From the IMG/VR virus record IMGVR_UViG_3300008267_013251, positions 1 through 64,000 of that record: DNA of 64,000 nt. One strand, given 5' to 3'. Both the position numbers and the translations under genes were made by a program. Positions 2,277 through 63,999 of this stretch are shown here, piece by piece. The notes under the pieces were generated by a model. The model was not told the DNA's origin, did not search any database, and saw only the letters and a program-made list of their open reading frames with translations. Source of the stretch: a virus. Each line of letters opens with the position of its first letter. Position 1 is the first letter of the stretch.

Positions 2277-2999
2277 ATGTTTGATTATTCACTTGGAGCA
2301 AGTTTACACGAAAAATTTGTGTACGCAAAACCATTCCCACATGTAGTTATTGACAACTTTATTTCTGATATCAGCCTATTAGACAAAATTTCTTATGAAT
2401 TCGAGCAACCTCAAGCTTGGGGTTATGACCCCGTAGCTGGCGACAATATGGCTAATAAATTATTCATCCCGTGGAAAGAACAGGACATTTCGAGCCTTCC
2501 TCAACACACCAAATCATTTTTGCAGTCTATGAATACAACCCAAACACTTATATTTTTAAGAGATTTAACAGGTATCAAAAATCTATTTGGAGACCCCTTT
2601 TTTGCTGGCGGTGGGATGCATAGAATTTTTAACGGTGGGAAATTATCTGTTCACGAAGATTTTGCGAAACATCCAAATAATAAAAAATGGTACAGAAGAC
2701 TCAATCTGTTGCTTTATTTAAATAGAGACTGGGATGAAAAATGGGGTGGTTCTTTGCAATTATTTGATAAACGAACCAAAAAAGTAGTTCATGATATAAT
2801 GCCAATTTTCAATAGAGCAGTAATTTTTGATACAACAAAAGACGCTTTGCATGGCCACCCGCATCCATTAAATACCCCACAAAATATTTGTAGAAATAGT
2901 TTAGCTCTGTATTATTTTACCGCAGAACCACCTAATGATGCGAGAAGCAGTTTAACTGCGGAGTGGCACCAGATTGACATCAATGGAAATTTGACTTGA
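2277..2999 (+). CDS. 2OG-Fe(II) oxygenase (prolyl-4-hydroxylase-like)
   Basis: PFPHVVIDNF, GGGMH, HxD (HED), RRLNLLLYLN, WGGSLQL, PIFNRAVIF, HGHP, RNSLALYY. Confidence 0.9.
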   Translation: MFDYSLGASLHEKFVYAKPFPHVVIDNFISDISLLDKISYEFEQPQAWGYDPVAGDNMANKLFIPWKEQDISSLPQHTKSFLQSMNTTQTLIFLRDLTGIKNLFGDPFFAGGGMHRIFNGGKLSVHEDFAKHPNNKKWYRRLNLLLYLNRDWDEKWGGSLQLFDKRTKKVVHDIMPIFNRAVIFDTTKDALHGHPHPLNTPQNICRNSLALYYFTAEPPNDARSSLTAEWHQIDINGNLT

Positions 3000-3985
3000 T
3001 GAATTTTGCTATTTGCTTAGCCCCAGACAAACCTACGGATAAAATATTTAATATATTTGATGTCTACAAATCCCATGGCGTAAGAATTTTATTTTTAGCA
3101 AAACCAAAAAGCGATCACGACTCATTTAAAAAACTACCAATTTTCTATGAAAATTTTGAATATATTTCACTAGACGATCAAAAAAATATTGATTTTAGAC
3201 TTTATACGAACATCGATGAAGATGACAAATTTCGACTCAATCTTGGGATGTTGTATGCATATCGCCAGAAGGCAAAGACGATATTTCTAGTTGATTTAGA
3301 TGAAGAGACAGAGCTTAATTATCTATTTGAAAAAGTTACGATAGGTAATTTTTTAAATTCGGAACATGACATAGATTTGTTTGTAACTGAAGATGCTGTT
3401 CTTGATCCTTTTCAAGCTACCACATCTACTCATATGTGGCACAGAGGGTTTCCATGGGAAAAACTTATCAGTAGAAATTCAATAGTAAAGAATTTAAATT
3501 GTCGAATAAAACCTTTTGTTCAAACATCTTTCATAAACGGGTCAACAGATGTAGACAATCTAGGAAAAATATTCTTTCAACCTGATGCTCAAATAAGTAT
3601 AAGCAAACCTTTCACATCAAATGCTTTGATGCCATTTAATTGTCTGAACACTTTAATAAAAAGAGAAGCCGTACCTTATTATTTTATTTTTCAAAATCTT
3701 GGAAATATATCCGACATTTTTGGATCATATGTCTTTCAATTATATTTCAAAAATTCTGTATTGTATTCTTGGCCAACCCTTACACGATTTGGAAAAAAAC
3801 AAAGCAATATAGACAGCTTAGAACAAGATATTCAGGATCAAAAACTGATTTCTGCCTTTTTTGAAAACCCCTCAGAATATAAACAGTTACTATCAAAACA
3901 AAACTTGCTATCACTTGAAATATACAGAACAAATTTTCCAGAAATAAATTTTGAATCCGGCGAAACTTCTTGGATGTCTGGTTAG
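2996..3985 (+). CDS. STELLO/DUF288-like glycosyltransferase-related protein
   Basis: 'NLGMLYAY', 'WHRGFPW', 'DVD', 'PFNxxNT', 'DIFGSY' resemble STELLO/reversibly glycosylated polypeptide motifs. Confidence 0.6.
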   Translation: MMNFAICLAPDKPTDKIFNIFDVYKSHGVRILFLAKPKSDHDSFKKLPIFYENFEYISLDDQKNIDFRLYTNIDEDDKFRLNLGMLYAYRQKAKTIFLVDLDEETELNYLFEKVTIGNFLNSEHDIDLFVTEDAVLDPFQATTSTHMWHRGFPWEKLISRNSIVKNLNCRIKPFVQTSFINGSTDVDNLGKIFFQPDAQISISKPFTSNALMPFNCLNTLIKREAVPYYFIFQNLGNISDIFGSYVFQLYFKNSVLYSWPTLTRFGKKQSNIDSLEQDIQDQKLISAFFENPSEYKQLLSKQNLLSLEIYRTNFPEINFESGETSWMSG

Positions 3986-3988
3986 GTG
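3959..3988 (+). promoter_or_regulatory. GGCGAAWC-type putative early promoter
   Basis: GGCGAAAC at 3959-3966. The same motif recurs about 55-70 nt upstream of four other genes. The -10 match here is weak. Confidence 0.45.
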
Positions 3989-4026
3989 CGTTCAGATACG
4001 AAACTTTAACCAAGGAGGATTTCACA

Positions 4027-5283
4027 ATGAGCACCACTACCAATACCGTCGAGCAAAATACGCCTAAAGTTTCAGCATCTCCTTCAGATTATGTCCCAGT
4101 AAAAAGGACTCCTGTTTGGACCAGCGTAGGTCTTCCAGACATTAATGCTACCGGCTTGAAGGGACGAGATAAGATTCTCGCCAAAATGGAGGCCATGAAA
4201 ACTGCAATTGTCGATAATCTCAAAAATGGCGTGATTCCATGGCGACATCAACTAGATGACGGTAAAGCAATTCAAAATGGCAGTCTTATCATTAACGCTA
4301 CTCCGAAGAAGGTGATTACTGGAGAGGCGTACCAAAAGATGAACTTCATTCGACTTCAGGTTGCTTGTGCTATCTTAAAATATAGCAGCAATTGGTTTGG
4401 GACTGTTGGTCAATGGAAGAAGGTAGTCCCCGGACTTCATTGTATTAAGGGCACTCATCCTATCACATTGTTTGCTCCACAAATGAGCAAATGCATCGAA
4501 CACGAAGCAAATGGTGATCCAAAAACAGATGCAAATGGAAAATATATCTATGCTAAAGATAGCGATGGTGAATTTATCTATGATCATACAGGATGGGCAC
4601 CATTCTATGTAATGAATTTGGATGATATGGACCCACAAACTCAAGAGCAACAAGATGCTCTCGATCAATTGCGTAAGAATGACTTGCATGAGTGTCGCAT
4701 TACTTATGATGACAAAATCAATATCATTCGTTGTCCTGAACTTGATGCGCTTCCGGGTCTTCTGGGTTGCAATTTGATTTTCCACGATGATCCCATGGAA
4801 AAGAGGTCTTTTTATCGCTTGTCAGAACATGCTATCTACATGCCGAAGCCCGAACGATTTAAGAGTGGCAAGGGATTTTATGCTGTGTTGCTGCATGAGC
4901 TTGTGCATAGCACCAAGAAGCAGCTAAACCGACCTCATGGGACTTATGATCCATTCTTTGGACCGGACGATGCTTATGCGAGGGAGGAATTGGTAGCTGA
5001 ATTCACTTGCATCAGTCTCATGTCAATCTTGGGCATGCATGATTGGGAAGGAGATGATTTGATTCAAAACTCCTCCGCTTATATGAAAAGCTGGTTGACT
5101 AAATTGCAATCAGAACCTGACTACCTTGATGAGGTGATGTATGCTGCTAAGGATGCCACAAGTTTGATTTTGGATAAACTTGGAAGCAAGTTTTCTCATC
5201 TCAAGTTGTCTTCTTTCAATCCTAAAACCGAAGCACCGGAGGAAAACTATGGAATTTTCGTCGCCAAAAACTGGGCCGTCTAA
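4027..5283 (+). CDS. ArdC-like antirestriction protein (ssDNA-binding domain + zincin metallopeptidase)
   Basis: 'GVIPWR', 'TGEAYQKMN', 'WFGTVGQW', 'FYRLSEHAIYMP', HExxH (HELVH), 'YAREELVAE', 'SAYMKSWL'. Start moved to ATG 4027, which follows AGGAGG. Confidence 0.85.
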   Translation: MSTTTNTVEQNTPKVSASPSDYVPVKRTPVWTSVGLPDINATGLKGRDKILAKMEAMKTAIVDNLKNGVIPWRHQLDDGKAIQNGSLIINATPKKVITGEAYQKMNFIRLQVACAILKYSSNWFGTVGQWKKVVPGLHCIKGTHPITLFAPQMSKCIEHEANGDPKTDANGKYIYAKDSDGEFIYDHTGWAPFYVMNLDDMDPQTQEQQDALDQLRKNDLHECRITYDDKINIIRCPELDALPGLLGCNLIFHDDPMEKRSFYRLSEHAIYMPKPERFKSGKGFYAVLLHELVHSTKKQLNRPHGTYDPFFGPDDAYAREELVAEFTCISLMSILGMHDWEGDDLIQNSSAYMKSWLTKLQSEPDYLDEVMYAAKDATSLILDKLGSKFSHLKLSSFNPKTEAPEENYGIFVAKNWAV

Positions 5284-15359: not shown

Positions 15360-16109
15360 TTAGTTATTTTTGATCATTTTAAATATTGGCAAATTTAAAT
15401 GTTCAACTCTTGGGTCAACACTACAAATATGATCATATGGCCAATCATTTTGGATTTTGTAAATTTGGTAGCCAAAACTTGAAATCAACTCGTATATTTC
15501 GTCTGTTGTAACACCAAACTTTTGCAGATGATGCTCTTCGATTTCTATGAAAATGGTTGGCATGTATTTCTTAATAGTGTTTTCTGCGCCTTGCATAATA
15601 AACTTTTCATAACCCTGAGCATCTAATTTTATGAAATCTATTCTGCCAATTTCTAAATCATCTAACTTCGTAGTCTTAATAGTTTCTCCACCAGAACCAA
15701 TGCTCAAAGCGCCCAAATTTACGCATGCTTGCTGATAATCAATTGGCTCCATTGTGAGAACTTGGCCAGATTCATTTCCTAAAGCCAAATTGTAAGTGTA
15801 AGCATTTTGGATATCATTCAGCACTAAATTTGCATTTAATTGTTGGAATAGTAATCGCTGTGGTTCGAAGGCAAATAGCTTGCCATTTAAACCCGTCTTT
15901 TTTGCCATTAAAACGCTGTTGTAACCAAAGTTGGCCCCGATATCAACTAAACATGAGCCAGCGCCTATAAGCTTAATTACCTCGTCAAAATGGGGTTCCC
16001 AAACTCCATCTCTAAGAATGTGCTGGCCAATATAATCAAATTCATAAAAAACAAACTGATTCTGTCTACTTCTAGCTATTATTTGTTTAATCAAGAGTTT
16101 GAGTTCCAA
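15360..16109 (-). CDS. FkbM family methyltransferase
   Basis: DIGANFG, FAFEP, NLALG, FIKLDAQG, PTIFIE. The start may be TTG 16094. Confidence 0.9.
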   Translation of the reverse strand: MELKLLIKQIIARSRQNQFVFYEFDYIGQHILRDGVWEPHFDEVIKLIGAGSCLVDIGANFGYNSVLMAKKTGLNGKLFAFEPQRLLFQQLNANLVLNDIQNAYTYNLALGNESGQVLTMEPIDYQQACVNLGALSIGSGGETIKTTKLDDLEIGRIDFIKLDAQGYEKFIMQGAENTIKKYMPTIFIEIEEHHLQKFGVTTDEIYELISSFGYQIYKIQNDWPYDHICSVDPRVEHLNLPIFKMIKNN

Positions 16110-16315
16110 TTTCGGGAAACCTGAATGTTTCCACTAAAATAATATCGTCTGATGAACTCGCATTCAGTCAAAAATATTGAATTCTTTGAAAAGCTGTGAT
16201 TCATGCGAAAGCATCGGCCTTTGCTTTTATTGTAGAAGTGATTGATCGAATGATGAAAACCTGTCGATCCAGTCCAGCAACTCGTAGATGAACAAGACCA
16301 TATTTTATGAATCAT
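16091..16315 (-). CDS. Ser/aromatic/Cys-rich microprotein (dispersed member)
   Basis: MIHKIWSCSSTSCWTGS...RCF...WNSNS; fills the gap between two co-oriented genes, starting 2 nt after the upstream stop. Confidence 0.6.
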   Translation of the reverse strand: MIHKIWSCSSTSCWTGSTGFHHSINHFYNKSKGRCFRMNHSFSKNSIFLTECEFIRRYYFSGNIQVSRNWNSNS

Positions 16316-17027: not shown

Positions 17028-17234
17028 TTAAACCCAAAAAGCCCTGAACTGAATACGGCTGTAAACATAAGGTGCGTATGAACTGCCTAATATATGTAAA
17101 GTATAATCTTGATGATTATGCCCATAATGTGAAAGTGTAAAACATTTGCTTTTATGTTGATTGGCATTATTAACAGAAATAGCTCTTTTGCCAAACACGG
17201 AAGAGCAGATGACTGCTGCATTGTGAATTGTCAT
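17028..17234 (-). CDS. Ser/aromatic/Cys-rich microprotein
   Basis: Starts at the TAATG overlap with the leader-bearing ORF: MTIHNAAVICSS...SKCF...RAFWV. Confidence 0.6.
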   Translation of the reverse strand: MTIHNAAVICSSVFGKRAISVNNANQHKSKCFTLSHYGHNHQDYTLHILGSSYAPYVYSRIQFRAFWV

Positions 17235-17506
17235 TATATTCTCCATTCTCCAAAACAAATTGATTCAGAAACCACGGGATTTTTGGAAAAGCAGCCACTT
17301 CTCTGGAAGCGCATTATACCGAAGAAAACTTTTTTACTGCCCCACGATGATACAGCATGTTTGCTCTGTTTAGCTCCTTTATCAAAAAAACTAAAAGCAT
17401 ATGACCTATGAGATAGATCAACTGTTCTTTTGGTTTCTTGCCAACTTACTTTCAAAGGTGGTTTGATATCAGTTGCCAAACCATAAAAACTAAAATCATA
17501 TTCCAT
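17234..17506 (-). CDS. leader-bearing Ser/aromatic-rich microprotein (paralog of 60474-60800)
   Basis: AGGAGG RBS and TAGACA-N17-TACAAT promoter; N-terminal FSxYG..KPP..SWxExKRTVDLSHxSYxF shared with the 60474 ORF. Confidence 0.8.
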   Translation of the reverse strand: MEYDFSFYGLATDIKPPLKVSWQETKRTVDLSHRSYAFSFFDKGAKQSKHAVSSWGSKKVFFGIMRFQRSGCFSKNPVVSESICFGEWRI

Positions 17507-26057: not shown

Positions 26058-27006
26058 TTTCCTCCTCTTGATGAGTTGAAAATATTAATATAGTATCTCT
26101 GAACCAGTCACAATGATCTTCGATAAGAAGCCTTGCTTTTGTAGTAAGCTCTTTACAAAAAATAAACCCTTGAGAGGAGAACATTTCAAGAACTTCGTCA
26201 TTGTTTCTGCAATTTACATGGCAAGTTCCACCTTGGCCCCTTACTGCCCAACTAAATATAAGATATCCATGACATGCATTAGTTATATTTGAAATAAGAA
26301 TGTTTTCATATTCCCTTGGAATATGCTCCGCTACTTCAAGACAGATTACATGACCTTTTTCTGGCACACTAAACAATTCAGCTAGGTCTTGCTTGTGGAT
26401 GTTGCTGAATTTAGGACTGGTTGATGGGCTCCCCTCAAAGCCTGTGAGTTTATCAAATCCAGACTCTTGTAAAGTTGATAAATAAAATCCATCACCGCAA
26501 CCAAAGTCATATATATTTCTGTCTTTAGTCAACAATGAAGAAATGAATCTAGCAAGGTTGGGACTATGAATATGGTTTTCATGAGTTGACCAAAAGCCAT
26601 GATTCGACCCTAAGTGCTCTATTTCATCCTTGATCCGTTTTAAGTTTGCCTTGGCAATCAATTGGTTTTCTACATCGAAGCACATATCTAAATACTTTTG
26701 TGCTTTTTCAATTTGTAACAAATTAGCGTAGCAAATGCTAAGTTGTCTGTATGCTTGATCCTTAGAGTGCAAGTACTCAACACAACTTTCAAAAACATCA
26801 ATAGCTTTTTGAAACTCTGCTATCTCTTGATAACACGAACCCAAAATAAATCCTTGATGTGGGTCTATCAGAATTTCTGATAACTCGTCTAATAATTTGA
26901 TTGCAAATTTTGTTTTGCCTTTTTTGCAAAACAACTGACACAATTCTAGGATTGGATTCACTTTAAATTTTCCTTGACCAGTTGTGAGAACATAACATGC
27001 CATCAA
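26038..27006 (-). CDS. TPR + class I SAM methyltransferase
   Basis: TPR-like helices, then DFGCGDG, 'CLEVAEHIP', 'SWA..GQGG..HVNC'. Confidence 0.85.
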   Translation of the reverse strand: MMACYVLTTGQGKFKVNPILELCQLFCKKGKTKFAIKLLDELSEILIDPHQGFILGSCYQEIAEFQKAIDVFESCVEYLHSKDQAYRQLSICYANLLQIEKAQKYLDMCFDVENQLIAKANLKRIKDEIEHLGSNHGFWSTHENHIHSPNLARFISSLLTKDRNIYDFGCGDGFYLSTLQESGFDKLTGFEGSPSTSPKFSNIHKQDLAELFSVPEKGHVICLEVAEHIPREYENILISNITNACHGYLIFSWAVRGQGGTCHVNCRNNDEVLEMFSSQGFIFCKELTTKARLLIEDHCDWFRDTILIFSTHQEEENAIHKN

Positions 27007-27187
27007 ACAAAAAACTAAAAGCGCCTCTTTTAAAAAGATTTCCAGATAGGTTCCACAGAAATGAATTGACTACATTTGTGACAAAAAAACTGGAAGGAGA
27101 AATAGTGCTGTACAATTTTGATCCATTTGAATTATTGGCCCAACATCGCACCACACTTATGGAATTCGTTCGATGACATAGTTTCAT
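26963..27187 (-). CDS. Ser/aromatic/Cys-rich microprotein (dispersed member)
   Basis: MKLCHRTNSISVVRCWANNS...HNWSRKI; starts 3 nt after the upstream stop. Confidence 0.55.
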   Translation of the reverse strand: MKLCHRTNSISVVRCWANNSNGSKLYSTISPSSFFVTNVVNSFLWNLSGNLFKRGAFSFLFDGMLCSHNWSRKI

Positions 27188-28354: not shown

Positions 28355-29854
28355 ATGTATACCAGCAACCTAGAAACAAAACCAAGTTGGCTTGATTATT
28401 ACCCAAATACTGAAAAAACAACCGTTGATGTAAACTTCGGTTTCGATTCTTCAGGAATGTGGTTTTCAGGTACTTCAGATGATGTTTCTTACCCTATTAG
28501 AACAACTTTTGATATCCCAAGTGATAATAAAACTGAGATTATAGCTACTTTTGTACAAGTAAATAATTGCGCCGATCATTCAATTTGTATTTTCAATCCA
28601 AATATTGAGCCAGAATGGTCTTGGGGCACAAGTACAACCAGAATTGCTTTTCAGGTAGACTGCGGGAGCCCGATGATATCTGGAATAACTCAGGATGGTG
28701 AAGGTGCTGGCTCAGATTTGAGTATTGGAAATACATACACTTGTAAGATTGTTTACGATCCATCAGCGGGTACATTTTCTTACGAAGTATATGATGGAGC
28801 AAGTGCAACAGGCGTTGCAATCAATTCATTAGTTTTGAATGAAGTTCTTCCGGCTGGTCCATATAGAATTGGATTCGATGCTGACCAAGATGAAGATCCA
28901 ACTAGAAGCTATTTTACATATTTGAGTATAAGCGGGCAAAAATCAAATCAATATCCATATCCAGAAGTTATATTCAGAGTGAAAACCTACGATCCATTAC
29001 AATTTGTAGGGCAAAATTTTCCAGACTCAAATGTGAACAACATTATTCGAAATCTAGAAAACCAGACTGTTTGGATTGAAAATTGGCCTTATGAATTAAA
29101 ACATGGTGATGAATTCACATTGTATGGAGAACAAGCTCTTCAAACATTAAATGCTTACAGTCAAATCAATCCGGGTGGAACACAGCTTGAAATGTTATAT
29201 TACGGCATTCGAGGCGGTTACTCTCCAGTAGGTCTTGGTGGTAGCTTGCATTTCAATAATAGTTATTTGACAGTTCCTGCAAGTAGTGACTGGGCTGTAG
29301 GTACTGGAGATTTCACAGTCGAATGGTTCCAATATCAATTCCCGACTGGTGGAAATGAAAGAGTATTTTCGGTGAATGCTTGGCCATCAGCAAGTATCGC
29401 TTGTAGCATGGAGTCAAGTGAAAATACATTTTATTTTTGGACAAATGGAAATTTGATAGATTGCGGTAATATTTCAGGCATTTATACCTCTTGGACTCAC
29501 ATAGCTGTTTGTAGAGCTTCAGGAACTCTTACTGCTTATGTGAACGGTACCCAAGTTTACAGCGGGGCTAACAGCGATGATATAACAGACAGCAGTAATT
29601 TGTTGTACATAGGTACGGAATCAACCCGTGGTGGTTCTGATTTCCTAGGGTACATAACAAATTTCCAATTCGTCAAGGGAACCGCATTGTACAATGCACC
29701 CTTCACTCCTCCAAGTGCTCCTATAACACCAGATGCAAATGCCAAATTGCTGTTACTTGCTTCAAGTGATTCTGAAAAATTAAAAGACAGCAGCAGTCAA
29801 AATAAAACTGTCACAAATAATGGCGTAGACTGGAATGAAACAACACCATTCTAA
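28355..29854 (+). CDS. LamG/ConA-like domain virion protein
   Basis: 'GTGDFTVEWF', 'WTHIAVCRASG..TAYVNG', 'GYITNFQFVKGTALY..FTPP'. Confidence 0.8.
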   Translation: MYTSNLETKPSWLDYYPNTEKTTVDVNFGFDSSGMWFSGTSDDVSYPIRTTFDIPSDNKTEIIATFVQVNNCADHSICIFNPNIEPEWSWGTSTTRIAFQVDCGSPMISGITQDGEGAGSDLSIGNTYTCKIVYDPSAGTFSYEVYDGASATGVAINSLVLNEVLPAGPYRIGFDADQDEDPTRSYFTYLSISGQKSNQYPYPEVIFRVKTYDPLQFVGQNFPDSNVNNIIRNLENQTVWIENWPYELKHGDEFTLYGEQALQTLNAYSQINPGGTQLEMLYYGIRGGYSPVGLGGSLHFNNSYLTVPASSDWAVGTGDFTVEWFQYQFPTGGNERVFSVNAWPSASIACSMESSENTFYFWTNGNLIDCGNISGIYTSWTHIAVCRASGTLTAYVNGTQVYSGANSDDITDSSNLLYIGTESTRGGSDFLGYITNFQFVKGTALYNAPFTPPSAPITPDANAKLLLLASSDSEKLKDSSSQNKTVTNNGVDWNETTPF

Positions 29855-30051
29855 AAGTTATTTCTTTTAAATGTAGATGATTCACTAAATTGACCGAAGA
29901 CAAAAGATTTCAACATGTCGTTATTGTAAACATCGGACGATTTGAAAGATCGTCCGAATGTTCCGCAATTGCAAACCCTGTTACATAACTCTGTGCAATA
30001 GTAATTGCTTCCCCAGCAGCGAGATATATAATCAGCTAATTTTTGTTGCAT
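29851..30051 (-). CDS. Ser/aromatic/Cys-rich microprotein (dispersed member)
   Basis: MQQKLADYISRCWGSNYYCTELCNRVCNCGTFGRSF...; the start may instead be TTG 30063. Confidence 0.5.
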   Translation of the reverse strand: MQQKLADYISRCWGSNYYCTELCNRVCNCGTFGRSFKSSDVYNNDMLKSFVFGQFSESSTFKRNNF

Positions 30052-44145: not shown

Positions 44146-44414
44146 TACCCTCAACAGGACTCGAACCTGTAACCTACAGCTTAGCATACCACTACGGTTT
44201 TCACCGCCCCATGTGGGTTCGTGGTCTGGACTGTGTCTTGACCTTCAGCATTATCTGTTCAGGTCCGTGCCGTTCAGTCTCTACACCTTCCCGTTTCCGG
44301 GCTTGGCTCGGCGTTACCAGTTAAGGATTCACCGAATTTGACACGATCCATTATAAGATTTCTCTTATAACGCTCCTTTTGAAGGCTGTTGCTCTTCCAT
44401 TGAGCTATGAGGGC
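44146..44414 (-). tRNA. trnR: tRNA-Arg(UCU), intron-containing (exons 44382-44414 and 44146-44184)
   Basis: Spliced: GCCCTCA TA GCTC AATGGAA GAGC A ACAGC CT-TCT-AA GCTGT AGGTT ACAGG TTCGAGT CCTGT TGAGGGT A. The A20 Arg determinant is present; CCA is not encoded. Confidence 0.92.
44185..44381 (-). ncRNA. group I self-splicing intron, subgroup IC3, 197 nt
   Basis: Follows exon U and ends in G. IGS GAG pairs with exon CUU. Core GTGTCAAATTCGGTGAA, AACGCCGAGCCAAG, GAAGGTGTAGAGACT, ACAGTCC closely resembles the Azoarcus tRNA intron core. Confidence 0.92.
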
Positions 44415-59792: not shown

Positions 59793-60059
59793 ATGGTAGT
59801 TAAATGTTTAGAATGCAACTCATACTCTGTATTTCATGCATGGATTGGTGTAAAAAGTAGAGTGACCAAAGGCTGCTGCTGTCCAAATCAAGTCTGGATT
59901 GACAGCAAAGAAAATATCCGAGCAGAAAACTTCGACAAAATTGAAATTTGGCATGGCGTTGAACAGAAGTTTATTCCATACCAGAGGTTCATGAGCCTAT
60001 GTTCTTCCCAGAAAGCAAATCATTCAGATTTGAAAGAAGATATTCTGGCACACGGTTAG
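59793..60059 (+). CDS. Zn-ribbon hypothetical protein
   Basis: CLEC...CCC.N.VWID. Confidence 0.6.
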   Translation: MVVKCLECNSYSVFHAWIGVKSRVTKGCCCPNQVWIDSKENIRAENFDKIEIWHGVEQKFIPYQRFMSLCSSQKANHSDLKEDILAHG

Positions 60060-60181
60060 CAAGATATAAATACTCATATGGTTTTAAATTCCATAGTAGT
60101 TTTTCAATAGCTTTTTTTGAAAGAACTGGCAGCGTCCTATTCTCACAGTTTAATTCTCGTTCTTTTGCTTTTGGAAATTGA
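59999..60181 (+). CDS. Ser/Phe-rich microprotein (array B)
   Basis: MFFPESKSFRF...SRSFAFGN; overlaps the upstream gene by about 60 nt. Confidence 0.45.
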   Translation: MFFPESKSFRFERRYSGTRLARYKYSYGFKFHSSFSIAFFERTGSVLFSQFNSRSFAFGN

Positions 60182-60183
60182 AA

Positions 60184-60381
60184 ATGTTGTTTAAAGTTGG
60201 CCAACGAAGTGATGTTTGCCAATTCCAAAATAATTGGAATCGGTCTGATTGTTGGACAGAAAGAGATTTTATATTAGAATCAGAGTGTTTTTCTAACAAA
60301 TACTTTTTCAGCAGACATTTTACTTGGGGAGATGAGTTCAATTTAAATAGCAGCTGGGGACATTGGTCTGGCAACATTTAG
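60184..60381 (+). CDS. Ser/aromatic/Cys-rich microprotein (array B)
   Basis: MLFKVGQRSDVC...SDCWT...SECFS...WSGNI; starts 2 nt after the previous stop. Confidence 0.6.
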   Translation: MLFKVGQRSDVCQFQNNWNRSDCWTERDFILESECFSNKYFFSRHFTWGDEFNLNSSWGHWSGNI

Positions 60382-60390
60382 GAGATCACC

Positions 60391-60474
60391 ATGATTAATA
60401 CTCTTTCTTTTCTCGTCGCTGTATCTGTACTAGTGGGTATGATATATATAGTTGCAGAGAAAGTGAGAGAGTGA
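60391..60474 (+). CDS. 27-aa single-TM peptide
   Basis: AGGAG RBS; MINTLSFLVAVSVLVGMIYIVAEKVRE; TGATG-coupled to the next gene. Confidence 0.55.
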   Translation: MINTLSFLVAVSVLVGMIYIVAEKVRE

Positions 60475-60800
60475 TGTCAGAAATTCCATTTTCAGTATAT
60501 GGTTTTACAACTAACAAGCCTCCAGTATTAAATACAAGTTGGAATGAACAAAAAAGAACTGTTGATCTAAGTCACAAAAGTTATGTTTTTATTACTTCTC
60601 TGTATTCATCACCATGGAGACAAAGAGAAAGGTTTCCAAACGCTGATCGATCCACTATACTTTACTATTGGTCAAAGTATGGTGATAAAAGAGTCAAAAG
60701 AAGTTTGAACTGGACAACCGAACCGAGATCATGGTGGCCTTCAGGCATAACTGAATCAAAGGTTTTCAACGAAAGTCATGTTAAAGGTTTTAAATTTTAA
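60474..60800 (+). CDS. leader-bearing Ser/aromatic-rich microprotein (paralog of 17234-17506)
   Basis: MSEIPFSVYGFTTNKPPVLNTSWNEQKRTVDLSHKSYVF followed by an unrelated W/S-rich tail. Confidence 0.8.
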   Translation: MSEIPFSVYGFTTNKPPVLNTSWNEQKRTVDLSHKSYVFITSLYSSPWRQRERFPNADRSTILYYWSKYGDKRVKRSLNWTTEPRSWWPSGITESKVFNESHVKGFKF

Positions 60801-60963
60801 TTGTGATGTTTTTTCAGCAGGTAACGCTTGCTCATTCAAAGACATAAATAATAGTGAACTTTATAGAGCACTTAGCTTTGACGGCAGAACTCAAAGCCAA
60901 TTATTCAGTCATCCGTTTATTTATGACAGTCATTGCTTCAATATGTTGTGGAGAAGCCCGTGA
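60778..60963 (+). CDS. Ser/aromatic/Cys-rich microprotein (array B)
   Basis: ...SHCFNMLWRSP; overlaps both neighbours. Confidence 0.55.
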   Translation: MLKVLNFNCDVFSAGNACSFKDINNSELYRALSFDGRTQSQLFSHPFIYDSHCFNMLWRSP

Positions 60964-61190
60964 TTTTCAATTACACATGCAGACACACTTATTCTGTATT
61001 CGCCCGAAATCAAAGATTCGGTGTGACATTCAGACCTAATGAATATTGTTGTTTGGCTTTTGGAAGTAGATTCAATAGAGTTAGTAGAAATACAGGGCAA
61101 GCTTGGAGTGAAGTGTTTGGTGCTTGCGAATCTACAGTATGGAAAGAATTTTCATTTGAAGAACAGCACAGTTGGAGCGATTGGGTATGA
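60960..61190 (+). CDS. Ser/aromatic/Cys-rich microprotein (array B)
   Basis: GTGA overlap with GGAG RBS; MIFNYTCRH...WSDWV. Confidence 0.6.
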   Translation: MIFNYTCRHTYSVFARNQRFGVTFRPNEYCCLAFGSRFNRVSRNTGQAWSEVFGACESTVWKEFSFEEQHSWSDWV

Positions 61191-61372
61191 GGTTGTTACA
61201 TGCAGAATCATGCTGCTGGATATTGCATCAAAAAGCAAGTTCCAATATAGCTTGTTTCTTCCATCATTTTATGCCGTATTCATATCTTTGGAAAAGTTTT
61301 TCAGCCAGAAATACTAATCTACGACTTCAACAATCTAAAAATTTTGGATTTTATTCCAGCGATTGGGTTTGA
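61187..61372 (+). CDS. Ser/aromatic/Cys-rich microprotein (array B)
   Basis: ATGA overlap; MRLLHAESCCW...SSDWV. Confidence 0.6.
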   Translation: MRLLHAESCCWILHQKASSNIACFFHHFMPYSYLWKSFSARNTNLRLQQSKNFGFYSSDWV

Positions 61373-61424
61373 TTCAGTAATTTTTTATAGTATTATGCCT
61401 AAGTGTTTTTTAAAAGGAGTTTCT

Positions 61425-61616
61425 ATGCCGTATCCAACGAAATGTGACCGTTGTCGTCAATCTATGTCTGACTGCTGTATGAGCAAATTTAATTCAGACT
61501 ATATTTGTGGCACCTGCCAAACAAAAGAACAATCTCATCCCCAATATGCAATTGCTACGGAAGTTGCAAAAAGAATGAGCAACTTTTCTGGAATTGGCAA
61601 GCCTTCCGACCTTTAA
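61425..61616 (+). CDS. small Zn-finger protein
   Basis: CDRC...MSKFN...CGTC...E..HP.Y; AAGGAG RBS. Confidence 0.65.
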   Translation: MPYPTKCDRCRQSMSDCCMSKFNSDYICGTCQTKEQSHPQYAIATEVAKRMSNFSGIGKPSDL

Positions 61617-62772: not shown

Positions 62773-62877
62773 ATTATTCCTTACGACATACCAACTACTA
62801 TGGCAAAATTTTATTGTATTTTCGAACTTTGATTATATAATGAAAATTTATCATAAAAAATAAAAAAAGAAGGCAAG

Positions 62878-63072
62878 ATGCTTTTCATCAACGGGCATGA
62901 CTGCGCCATCTTCAGCCAAATATATTCTGGCAGTCACAATTGGAGAAATAATTGGTGTCTATGTGACACTAGAGCTATGACAGCCAGAGCAGCATTGTCA
63001 TTTTCCCATTGTTGGTCTAAAAATATAACTTGCTCCCAAAAGAATGATTCTTTTTTGTGGGGGATAGACTAA
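62878..63072 (+). CDS. Ser/aromatic/Cys-rich microprotein (array A, 1)
   Basis: MLFINGHDC...SHCWS...WGID; AAGG RBS. Confidence 0.6.
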   Translation: MLFINGHDCAIFSQIYSGSHNWRNNWCLCDTRAMTARAALSFSHCWSKNITCSQKNDSFLWGID

Positions 63073-63260
63073 TGTTCTATAAGTTCGGCAGTTCCAGATC
63101 ATTTCATTGGCAAATCTGGTCGCATCATGGCACCAGAGGCGTAATATGGGGAGATAATTTTGTGGGCAAAAGGGATCGGTATTCCATATTGTTGAGTAAG
63201 ACCTCCCAATTAACAAGCAGATGGTCGTACTACAGTAAGTGCTGGGGGTGGAGAGATTAG
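63072..63260 (+). CDS. Ser/aromatic/Cys-rich microprotein (array A, 2)
   Basis: TAATG overlap; MFYKFGSSRSFHW...SKCWGWRD. Confidence 0.6.
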   Translation: MFYKFGSSRSFHWQIWSHHGTRGVIWGDNFVGKRDRYSILLSKTSQLTSRWSYYSKCWGWRD

Positions 63261-63261
63261 C

Positions 63262-63468
63262 ATGATATTCACTAGAAACTGTAATGGCATGAATACATTA
63301 CATCTACGAAGATTTTCTTATCTGTTTGATTCTTTTGGAACTTCAGTTTCTTTTCATGGAAAATATGGGTCAGCACTTTGTTTTGAAGGAAATTCATTTA
63401 TGTCTAATGCATTTCACGATGGACAGATGACATGCGGAAGACCATTTGCTTTAAGGACACAAATTTAG
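63262..63468 (+). CDS. Ser/aromatic/Cys-rich microprotein (array A, 3)
   Basis: 1-nt gap, GGAG RBS; MIFTRNCN...LCFEG... Confidence 0.6.
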   Translation: MIFTRNCNGMNTLHLRRFSYLFDSFGTSVSFHGKYGSALCFEGNSFMSNAFHDGQMTCGRPFALRTQI

Positions 63469-63479
63469 GAGACTTTCCA

Positions 63480-63620
63480 ATGATGTTCTGCCGTATGAGA
63501 AGCAGCAAATGTTGGTCAGAAGGCAATTATCAATTCATTTTTTATGATGTTGTAAGCAGTCGTTTAAACGGTGGATATTATAGTTATATGTTCAGCAGAG
63601 AGCGAGTGAGGAGCCTTTGA
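63480..63620 (+). CDS. Ser/aromatic/Cys-rich microprotein (array A, 4)
   Basis: AGGAG RBS; MMFCRMRSSKCWSEG... Confidence 0.6.
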   Translation: MMFCRMRSSKCWSEGNYQFIFYDVVSSRLNGGYYSYMFSRERVRSL

Positions 63621-63823
63621 TTATCCGAATTAACACTATTTCAAACAATGGATGCTGGAGTGGCGATAACAGCATTAGCCATTGCTTTCCACGCTTCCAA
63701 TATTGCACTCTGAGGAATACAGTAGGCAGAAGCATGGGTTTTTGGAGTGTGATATTTGAAAGGCAATGCAGATCGAAATTGCGCTATGGATTTTGGTCGA
63801 GTTGCTGGGGGAGCGGGATATGA
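63617..63823 (+). CDS. Ser/aromatic/Cys-rich microprotein (array A, 5)
   Basis: TTGA overlap, GAGGAG RBS; GCWS, SHCF, SSCWGSGI. Confidence 0.6.
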   Translation: MIIRINTISNNGCWSGDNSISHCFPRFQYCTLRNTVGRSMGFWSVIFERQCRSKLRYGFWSSCWGSGI

Positions 63824-63999
63824 TCCATCTGATTAACTCCTACAAAGAATGTTGGTGCTGGAATGATGCCAGCGATACAAGCTATTGCTTTATTGGCACA
63901 AAATATAGTACATTGTCAAAGCGCAGGGCATTTGGTGTCAAGGCAATATGGAGTTATGGGTATTCACAAGGCTATTCACAAAACTATTGGATTTTTTGA
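63820..63999 (+). CDS. Ser/aromatic/Cys-rich microprotein (array A, 6)
   Basis: ATGA overlap; MIHLINSYKECWCWN...SYCF...YWIF. Confidence 0.6.
   Translation: MIHLINSYKECWCWNDASDTSYCFIGTKYSTLSKRRAFGVKAIWSYGYSQGYSQNYWIF

Follow-up and report, generated by a model that had tools for sequence, protein, structure and literature searches.

The closest described systems to the locus studied here are the hyperplastic regions of T4-type phages, which carry cassettes of small ORFan genes with junctions made of a promoter plus a stem-loop (PeSL; PMC2839356, PMC4122927). The "ORFanage" regions of cyanophages are comparable regions of small ORFan genes (PMC4503421). Here we describe two arrays and several dispersed copies of very small genes in the IMG/VR virus record IMGVR_UViG_3300008267_013251. 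The window that was analysed is the first 64 kb (64,000 nucleotides) of this 145,015-bp viral contig, for which CheckV estimates a completeness of 33%. Array 1 (62878-64765, u units) runs past the end of the window, array 2 (59999-61372) consists of the a units, and the dispersed members are called m units. An original prediction, made by a model from the letters and a list of open reading frames (ORFs), had taken these frames for a hypervariable family of microproteins. Our results indicate that the tiny frames are very probably real, conserved and translationally coupled small protein genes.

As in the ORFan regions of T4-type phages and cyanophages, the arrays are clusters of small genes of unassigned function that lie between conserved genes. 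The presence of genes likewise differs in close relatives by insertions, deletions and replacements, divergent alleles occur within near-identical genomes (64180-64472), and an inserted gene lies between two copies of a short direct repeat (64685-64765 and 65336-65416). In contrast to PeSL cassettes, there is no promoter and stem-loop between the genes, which overlap or abut and appear translationally coupled; promoter-like sites (17 compared with 17.8 in shuffles) and terminator-like sites (2 compared with 2.6) are at chance level. PeSL cassettes are exchanged at a repeated junction; here a repeat flanks a 190-aa gene, yet the breakpoint in the close relative L037 lies inside unit u8. Also unlike ORFan cassettes, the products share a basic make-up rich in aromatic residues, Ser and Cys, and array 2 is conserved in synteny and not variable. 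The clusters are an unusual variant of the accessory small-gene clusters of phages.

The coding status of the units is best judged by comparison with related contigs. When 1.84 billion proteins were searched with a profile built from 14 units, seven matches were obtained, all of them near-orthologues of single units from other metagenomes, and the contigs encoding them were compared with the present one. One relative, L033 (13.5 kb), is a mosaic that shares 71-93% identity with our contig over 61485-75520. L035 and L037-39 are closely related to our contig, L036 is more distant, and L044-46 derive from a more distant relative. Over 11 units, the substitutions relative to L033 are distributed 57/52/170 over the three codon positions, that is, 170 of 279 are at third positions (chi-square ~96). 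The Nei-Gojobori proportions of nonsynonymous (pN) and synonymous (pS) differences of u2, u4, u7, u8 and u9 are 0.02-0.12 and 0.31-0.82 in the called frame; in both shifted frames of the same units pN is roughly equal to or larger than pS (ratio 0.5-2.4). Across 15 informatively diverged units pN ranges from 0.02 to 0.32 and pS from 0.3 to 0.9. Indels relative to L036 in u2 and u4 are multiples of three.

The pattern recurs in single units. Substitutions in u1 are distributed 7/5/23 relative to L033 and 3/2/17 relative to L035; its orthologue in the distant L045 has 89% amino acid identity (pN 0.06, pS 0.60), and the database protein P0002 is a u1 orthologue in another metagenome. For u2 the counts are 7/9/28 relative to L033, 5/7/28 relative to L034 and 12/13/28 relative to L036, the last with in-frame 3-nt indels (pN 0.10, pS 0.82), and for u4 they are 1/1/7 relative to L033 (pN 0.017, pS 0.31) and 7/9/14 relative to L036 with an in-frame indel. 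All six a units and u1 have orthologues in L044-46, with 58-89% amino acid identity, pN of 0.06-0.32 and pS of 0.60-0.88. Compared with L046, identity is 58% for a1 (13/14/32; pN 0.22, pS 0.77), 71% for a2 (16/12/31; pN 0.19, pS 0.88) and 75% for a4 (12/6/21; pN 0.12, pS 0.66). The 76-aa a5 (pN 0.17, pS 0.66 relative to L046) has 22 invariant columns in an alignment of 15 sequences (A4). In a6 (60% identity, pN 0.32, pS 0.70) the orthologues in L046 and L040 keep the ...SDWV or GDWV end. The claim that the peptides are hypervariable and constrained in composition rather than in position is refuted by the excess of third-position changes, by pN values far below pS, by the identities of 58-89% and by the invariant columns. 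A dN/dS comparison across relatives, which had been suggested as a check, gave pairwise pN well below pS, as expected for purifying selection over the genes as a whole; single positions under diversifying selection may escape such pairwise values. Due to pN << pS and the 22 invariant columns, position is therefore constrained within each group of orthologues. As judged from these substitutions, purifying selection acts on the genes that could be compared with relatives, and most of the genes have a conserved orthologue in related phages.

The organization of the locus was examined in the contig itself. The six same-strand frames reported between 62878 and 63999 are all present (Table 1) and are joined as claimed by TAATG, a 1-nt gap, TTGA and ATGA. 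The suspected continuation of the array past the window exists: array 1 reaches 64765 (contig coordinates) with four further units, ten genes in all, and there joins the 190-aa gene, which has normal coding statistics, via an ATGA overlap. Several starts are better set at internal ATG or GTG codons on the overlaps (63072, 63480, 63820, 60184, 60960 and 61187). Dispersed ORFs of the same kind across the window were confirmed as well (m1 to m4 and 17234-17506 on the minus strand). The plus strand is fully tiled by ORFs of at least 55 aa, which was reached in none of 2000 Markov simulations (p < 0.0005). Shine-Dalgarno (SD) matches of at least 4 nt precede 14 of 21 microprotein starts, compared with 58% of 104 long genes and 25% of random ATG codons, so that the ribosome-binding elements that had been noticed at the starts are as frequent as at long genes.

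In both arrays, no frame is open over a long distance. A reassigned stop codon was considered and ruled out: all three stops occur in every frame of both arrays and no single reassignment opens a frame. No tRNA array or Rfam family was found in the array regions at the gathering or a relaxed threshold, and the search for a DNA-level repeat array in them gave only short chance repeats and one 64-nt duplicate, with no tandem or hexamer repeats. The motif TATAAATA, tried as a marker of late promoters, proved uninformative, as its 20 sites are below a rough chance estimate, several are too near to starts and none is upstream of array 1. The promoter-like site 5' of u1 (Table 1) was missed by the promoter scan (3/6 matches in the -35 hexamer) in a region where such sites are no commoner than in shuffles.

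The microproteins were described as a family of about 17 members sharing a composition and short motifs. The composition claim holds: Ser, Phe, Arg, Cys and Trp make up 12.6, 9.0, 8.6, 4.6 and 4.4% of residues compared with 6.7, 5.2, 3.7, 1.7 and 1.6% in long genes. The products have 46-76 aa, are mostly basic (mean pI 9.1) with ~20% aromatic residues and ~13% Ser, and contain little Ala, Val, Leu, Lys, Asp, Glu and Pro. Adjacent aromatic residues are fewer than expected (35 pairs, compared with 54.5), and Ser follows an aromatic residue more often than by chance (58, 40 expected); Ser at every second position is absent as a pattern (S.S count 27, compared with 26.3 in shuffles). The reported counts of a Cys-[Trp/Phe] dipeptide in 14 of 17 peptides and of Trp within the last five residues in 12 of 17 replicate exactly. 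Composition-matched shuffles of the 17 peptides have means of 5.5 and 3.1, with none of 5000 reaching the observed counts, and among generic six-frame ORFs of 45-110 aa the frequencies are 23% and 8.6%.

About half of the terminal-Trp signal is the ribosome-binding site of the following gene, read in frame as Trp-Gly or Trp-Arg. A TGGGGG or TGGAG site located 5-17 nt 5' of the next start includes the terminal Trp codon of u1, u2, u5, a4, a5 and 17234-17506(-) and, weakly, that of m2. In u6, a2, a6, m1 and m3 the Trp codon has no coupled start within 5-17 nt, and the C-terminal Trp is kept in the orthologues of a2 and a6; it is therefore a protein feature there. The bias for Ile, Lys, Asn, Thr or Met as second residue exists because the ATGA overlap forces an A at the start of the second codon. 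Reading such loci from sequence alone thus calls for caution: Trp-Gly, Trp-Arg and Met-Ile end motifs in coupled genes can be the footprint of ribosome-binding sites and overlaps and not a protein signature.

The statement that the members do not align has to be modified. The paralogues are highly divergent, with a mean column identity of 18-27%, and m2 and a4 have no detectable alignment. Subsets nevertheless do align (alignments A2 and A3), u5 and u6 match each other in BLASTP with E = 1e-4, trimmed cores score above shuffles (Z ~7), and with leave-one-out profiles 8 of 14 members rank fifth or better among 2223 ORFs. The evidence on a single family of about 17 members is thus divided: u5 and u6 are clear tandem paralogues, whereas the a5 group reaches 6% probability against the other units in profile-profile comparison (hhalign), and the pair m2 and a4 does not align. 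The set thus appears mixed, with a few clusters of tandem duplicates beside small genes of similar make-up that have no demonstrable common origin.

Gene content of the region varies between relatives. In L034 and L035, two independent metagenomic contigs, 63262-63970 (u3 to u6) is cleanly deleted and u2 is joined to the next unit. The 143-aa database protein P0007, considered as a fusion protein, was rejected as such; it is a gene call on this deletion variant in which TAG was read through as Gln. L033 keeps the array with several additional units and is without the methyltransferase found beside array 1 in our contig. L044 and L045 have only u1 of array 1. L037-39 are ~99% identical to our contig, but the tract 64180-64472 is 84% identical, with almost all differences synonymous and 25 of the 30 in u7 at third positions; by its sequence, this tract has been replaced by the allele of a diverged relative. 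Its right breakpoint in L037 (~64472), the only one that can be placed, is inside u8 and not at a gene junction. The direct repeat that flanks the 190-aa gene has 81 nt, is 95% identical over 64 nt, and combines the u9 3' end with its SD and the ATGA junction. The same arrangement is found in L033 and L037-39, and the repeat resembles a scar left by short-homology recombination when a cassette was inserted.

As far as the compared contigs show, array 2 is syntenic across the wider clade and array 1 is an accessory region, with a set of genes and alleles that changes from one close strain to another. From the differences in gene content, the variable feature is therefore which genes are present and not the sequence of the proteins. 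Other routes to relatives gave little: the methyltransferase led only to loci that are 40% identical and have no array, no relative was found through the 402-aa or the 190-aa gene, and the junction motif TGCTGGGG-N5-GGATATGA had 27 single matches in viral contigs, none with ORFs of the family, which we take as chance.

We propose that the two arrays and the dispersed copies are small genes, each translated on its own, that belong to co-directional operons in the genome of a large, uncultured phage. Each gene has its own SD, and most are joined by a stop/start overlap (ATGA, TAATG, GTGA or TTGA), so that ribosomes probably pass from gene to gene. The proteins would be made before or apart from the virion genes and may act by direct binding to nucleic acid, to host proteins or to phage proteins. 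A class of such direct binders serving as accessories of host takeover or counter-defence is a tentative assignment, drawn from composition and context. Taken as a whole, with real, coupled and constrained small genes, a mixed set and the proposed function, we consider this explanation reasonably probable.

Several observations weigh against it. The coding-potential scores of the microprotein ORFs in a three-periodic Markov model trained on 80 long ORFs are -0.06 to +0.035, compared with +0.067 for long genes and -0.044 for shadow ORFs. Codon-position composition is atypical, with a G-rich second and a T-rich first position, like the shifted (+2) frame of ordinary genes. The orthologue evidence does not cover u5, m1, m2 and m3; u3 is intact and 99% identical in L033, too similar to give a selection signal, and u6 is equivocal, with 7/4/8 substitutions relative to its L036 orthologue P0005. 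For u5 no orthologue was found, and a word-based search of a database of 5.8 billion proteins gave no match, not even u5 itself; family likeness is what suggests that u5 is coding. AlphaFold2 gave no confident fold (pLDDT 47.6 for u9 with the family alignment, 38 for a5 with its orthologues), and a prediction of a two-copy a5 complex scored 0.03, which is no verdict and evidence in neither direction. The functional class is drawn from composition and context, and none of the neighbours with a known function accompanies the arrays consistently. In agreement with the statement that no named family is known, no credible match was obtained in Pfam, PHROGs, PDB sequences, the ESM Atlas or GenBank phages, and the search of GenBank phages likewise gave no homologue in a cultured phage.

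Low coding-potential scores, a u5 without homologue and the missing fold would also be expected if the frames were not genes, but had arisen by chance, belonged to a decaying pseudogene with frameshifts, or lay open fortuitously in a non-coding RNA or a regulatory region. This is already contradicted by substitutions biased to third positions in exactly the called frames, by in-frame indels, by SD motifs at the starts, by an ORF tiling beyond any simulation and by the absence of Rfam and tRNA matches, and we regard it as extremely improbable. The low scores, together with the codon-position composition resembling the +2 frame, fit also a gene nursery, in which array 1 is a young lineage-specific expansion where duplication and frame changes make new ORFs of mostly weak or transient function, and their odd composition would stem from alternative frames of older coding sequence. 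The distant L044 and L045 have nothing of array 1 except u1, the content of array 1 is variable among close relatives, u5 and u6 are tandem paralogues, and the 190-aa gene is flanked by a repeat derived from the 3' end of u9, all of which is in line with a nursery. However, the units common to L033 or L036 have saturated synonymous sites and are under strong purifying selection, so these units are old and constrained. Array-2 members of like composition are conserved across the wider clade, and alternative-frame translations of both arrays match no other gene of the contig. An origin of array 1 as a nursery is thus unlikely.

Other alternatives concern what the proteins do. Precursor genes of ribosomally synthesized and post-translationally modified peptides (RiPPs) of the prochlorosin type are arrayed in tandem, and the present arrays resemble them in having many short tandem genes rich in Ser and Cys. 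A diversified peptide library, in which sequence is free as long as composition is kept, or RiPP-type precursors with a variable core modified on Ser, Cys or Trp would agree with the strong divergence of the paralogues, with the richness in these residues, with the TylF-like methyltransferase beside array 1 and with the carbamoyl- and glycosyltransferases elsewhere in the contig. Both readings are already contradicted by the substitution pattern, since orthologues are conserved end to end with pN << pS and a5 has its invariant columns. In contrast to RiPP precursors, there is no conserved leader with a hypervariable core: no common leader exists beyond ~7 residues, and the N-terminal likeness is partly forced by the ATGA overlap. 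Cys is not fixed, with C/S and C/H swaps between orthologues. A conserved modifying enzyme is also missing, because L033 keeps the array without the methyltransferase, the other neighbours have no Pfam match, and Pfam scans of the neighbouring genes found no radical-SAM, LanM or cyclodehydratase-type protein. The library and RiPP readings are accordingly very unlikely. Small beta-rich assembly or structural modules, amyloid-like or internal to the virion, that fold only on co-assembly would account for the failed single-chain structure prediction. Aromatic residues that avoid adjacency and are followed by Ser fit amphipathic strands, the low-confidence AlphaFold2 model of a5 contains two short strands, and translational coupling suits a fixed stoichiometry. 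Yet the arrays have no structural-gene neighbours and lie among accessory enzymes, strain-variable gene content is unusual for structural parts, and no capsid-targeting or signal sequence was seen; we give such modules only a slight chance.

A module for the handling of nucleic acids would involve the a3-type protein, a family of ~105 aa. For a3 we found 29 full-length homologues with 59-98% identity, and alignment A5, in which 17234-17506(-) is included, has 15 invariant columns. A gene of this type occurs twice in the window (60471-60800 on the plus and 17234-17506 on the minus strand), each with coupled microprotein genes directly downstream. The two had been read as a shared leader fused to unrelated tails; they are instead paralogues up to the C-terminus, and the supposed tail of a3 is conserved in 22 relatives. 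The microproteins could act together with the a3-type protein, a candidate partner, and as basic, aromatic-studded peptides bind RNA or single-stranded DNA by stacking and charge. This would be consistent with the order a3, a4-a6 and its counterpart 17234-17506(-), m2, with the synteny of the a3 block including a1, a2, a4, a5 and a6 in L046, with a 63-aa ORF rich in Trp, Ser, Arg and Cys that overlaps the a3 start in L048, and with basic products of ~20% aromatic residues in which a polar residue follows the aromatic one. Against it, Ser has no period-2 pattern, array 1 has no a3-type gene, and L048 has nothing of this kind downstream of a3. Neither a3 nor its 22 relatives have a match in Pfam or PDB sequences, and the LSM (PF01423) and Hfq (PF17209) profiles, both of which detect their targets in control genomes, have no match in the contig. 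We consider the module doubtful.

Cold-shock domain proteins are small basic nucleic-acid binders with an aromatic surface. As a functional analogy, not as members, the products resemble them in size (60-75 aa), in aromatic residues spaced by polar ones and in net positive charge. Unlike cold-shock proteins, they have no match in Pfam, PDB sequences or the Atlas and no confident fold, and binding is here an analogy only.

The large genes of the contig match phage families, among them a baseplate wedge, a virion structural protein, a DNA polymerase, an ArdC-like anti-restriction protein and carbamoyltransferases; the contig is therefore part of a large, uncultured tailed phage. The surroundings of the arrays are accessory enzymes (the TylF-like methyltransferase beside array 1, a NUDIX protein and a glycosyltransferase) and not virion genes, and carbamoyl- and glycosyltransferases are present elsewhere in the contig. 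The features of the locus are collected in Table 1.

Table 1 Small genes and associated features in the analysed window, in coordinates of the contig.
Feature	Position	Strand	Remarks
Possible sigma-70-like promoter (TTGTAT, 16-nt spacer, TATAAT)	62814..62841	+	~37 nt 5' of u1; named for its resemblance to the consensus only
u1, 64 aa	62878..63072	+	SD AAGAAGG upstream; stop overlaps next start (TAATG); orthologues found
u2, 62 aa	63072..63260	+	Ends ...SKCWGWRD; originally called GTG start 63057 less likely, orthologues begin at the matching Met
u3, 68 aa	63262..63468	+	SD GGTGGAGAG upstream; intact in L033
u4, 46 aa	63480..63620	+	SD TAGGAGA upstream; alternative start 63432
u5, 68 aa, TTG start on TTGA overlap	63617..63823	+	SD GTGAGGAGCC upstream; ends ...SSCWGSGI
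u6, 59 aa, start at ATGA overlap	63820..63999	+	P0005 (L036) orthologue starts at the same Met; originally called start 63766 less likely
a1, 60 aa	59999..60181	+	Orthologue in L046
a2, 65 aa	60184..60381	+	Orthologue in L046
a3, conserved 109-aa protein	60471..60800	+	29 full-length homologues; paralogue of 17234-17506(-)
a4, 61 aa	60778..60963	+	Last codons TGG AGA AGC CCG TGA hold SD and overlap the GTG start of a5; orthologue in L046
a5, 76 aa, GTG start on GTGA overlap	60960..61190	+	17 database homologues
a6, 61 aa, ATGA overlap with a5	61187..61372	+	Ends ...SSDWV; orthologues in L046 and L040
m1, 74-aa ORF, fills the gap between two co-directional genes	16091..16315	-	Translation; leave-one-out rank 4 of 2223 six-frame ORFs
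m2, 68-aa ORF, TAATG-coupled to the upstream a3 paralogue	17028..17234	-	Translation; no significant likeness to a4
m2b, 90-aa a3 paralogue	17234..17506	-	tblastn E=4e-10, 35% identity over 98 aa, similarity reaching the C-terminus
m3, 74-aa ORF of the same kind	26963..27187	-	Translation; leave-one-out rank 3 of 2223
m4, 66-aa ORF of the same kind	29851..30051	-	Translation; near-identical P0003 (2 aa differences) called in another sequencing run

Some further features of the contig and its relatives were observed. At 61344-61616 (+), a small Cys-rich zinc-ribbon-like protein with Cys pairs as in CxxC ... CxxC is encoded, with a probable start at an internal Met-Pro-Tyr-Pro; it has 83% identity in the distant L046 (pN 0.12, pS 0.78). 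L046 encodes four coupled ORFs of 36-41 aa with largely hydrophobic products at 2648-3084, and the window has one such ORF of 27 aa (60391-60474) between a2 and a3. These hydrophobic 27-41-aa ORFs are a second, different class of tiny coupled genes. On the minus strand of the window at 44146-44392, a tRNA called by ARAGORN as Ser-GCT (44146-44218) overlaps an Rfam group I intron match (44208-44392, 51.4 bits, E=3.9e-10), an arrangement that looks like an intron-split phage tRNA gene. Past the window, degenerate tandem repeats of ~150 nt with 74-80% identity lie at 73012-73955 of the contig within a 439-aa ORF (73000-74319). In L040 and L044, the product of genes at ~1614-2690 and ~3634-4710 (-) is a protein of 358 aa that has a prepilin N-methylation domain and an SBP_bac_10 (DUF1559) domain. 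The DUF1559 family is greatly expanded in Planctomycetes, and such genes in relatives may, as we presume, hint at a host from this group.

In conclusion, our comparative test shows that most of these small and oddly composed genes encode real, constrained proteins even though ordinary coding measures score near zero. One may speculate further that they belong to a widespread, undescribed class of basic, aromatic-studded microproteins in uncultured aquatic phages. Coupling would fix the ratios of such proteins, which would have RNA or DNA as their target, perhaps together with an a3-type partner, or would form condensate-like assemblies through aromatic and Arg contacts. We rate this rather low, but if true, either mode would be a new kind of phage effector without known fold. 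In this clade of large, uncultured phages from aquatic habitats, more than 20 small, basic, aromatic-rich proteins without known fold or relative have been retained, some syntenic clade-wide and others coming and going between strains, and these microproteins are candidates for new host-interaction or nucleic-acid-binding functions.

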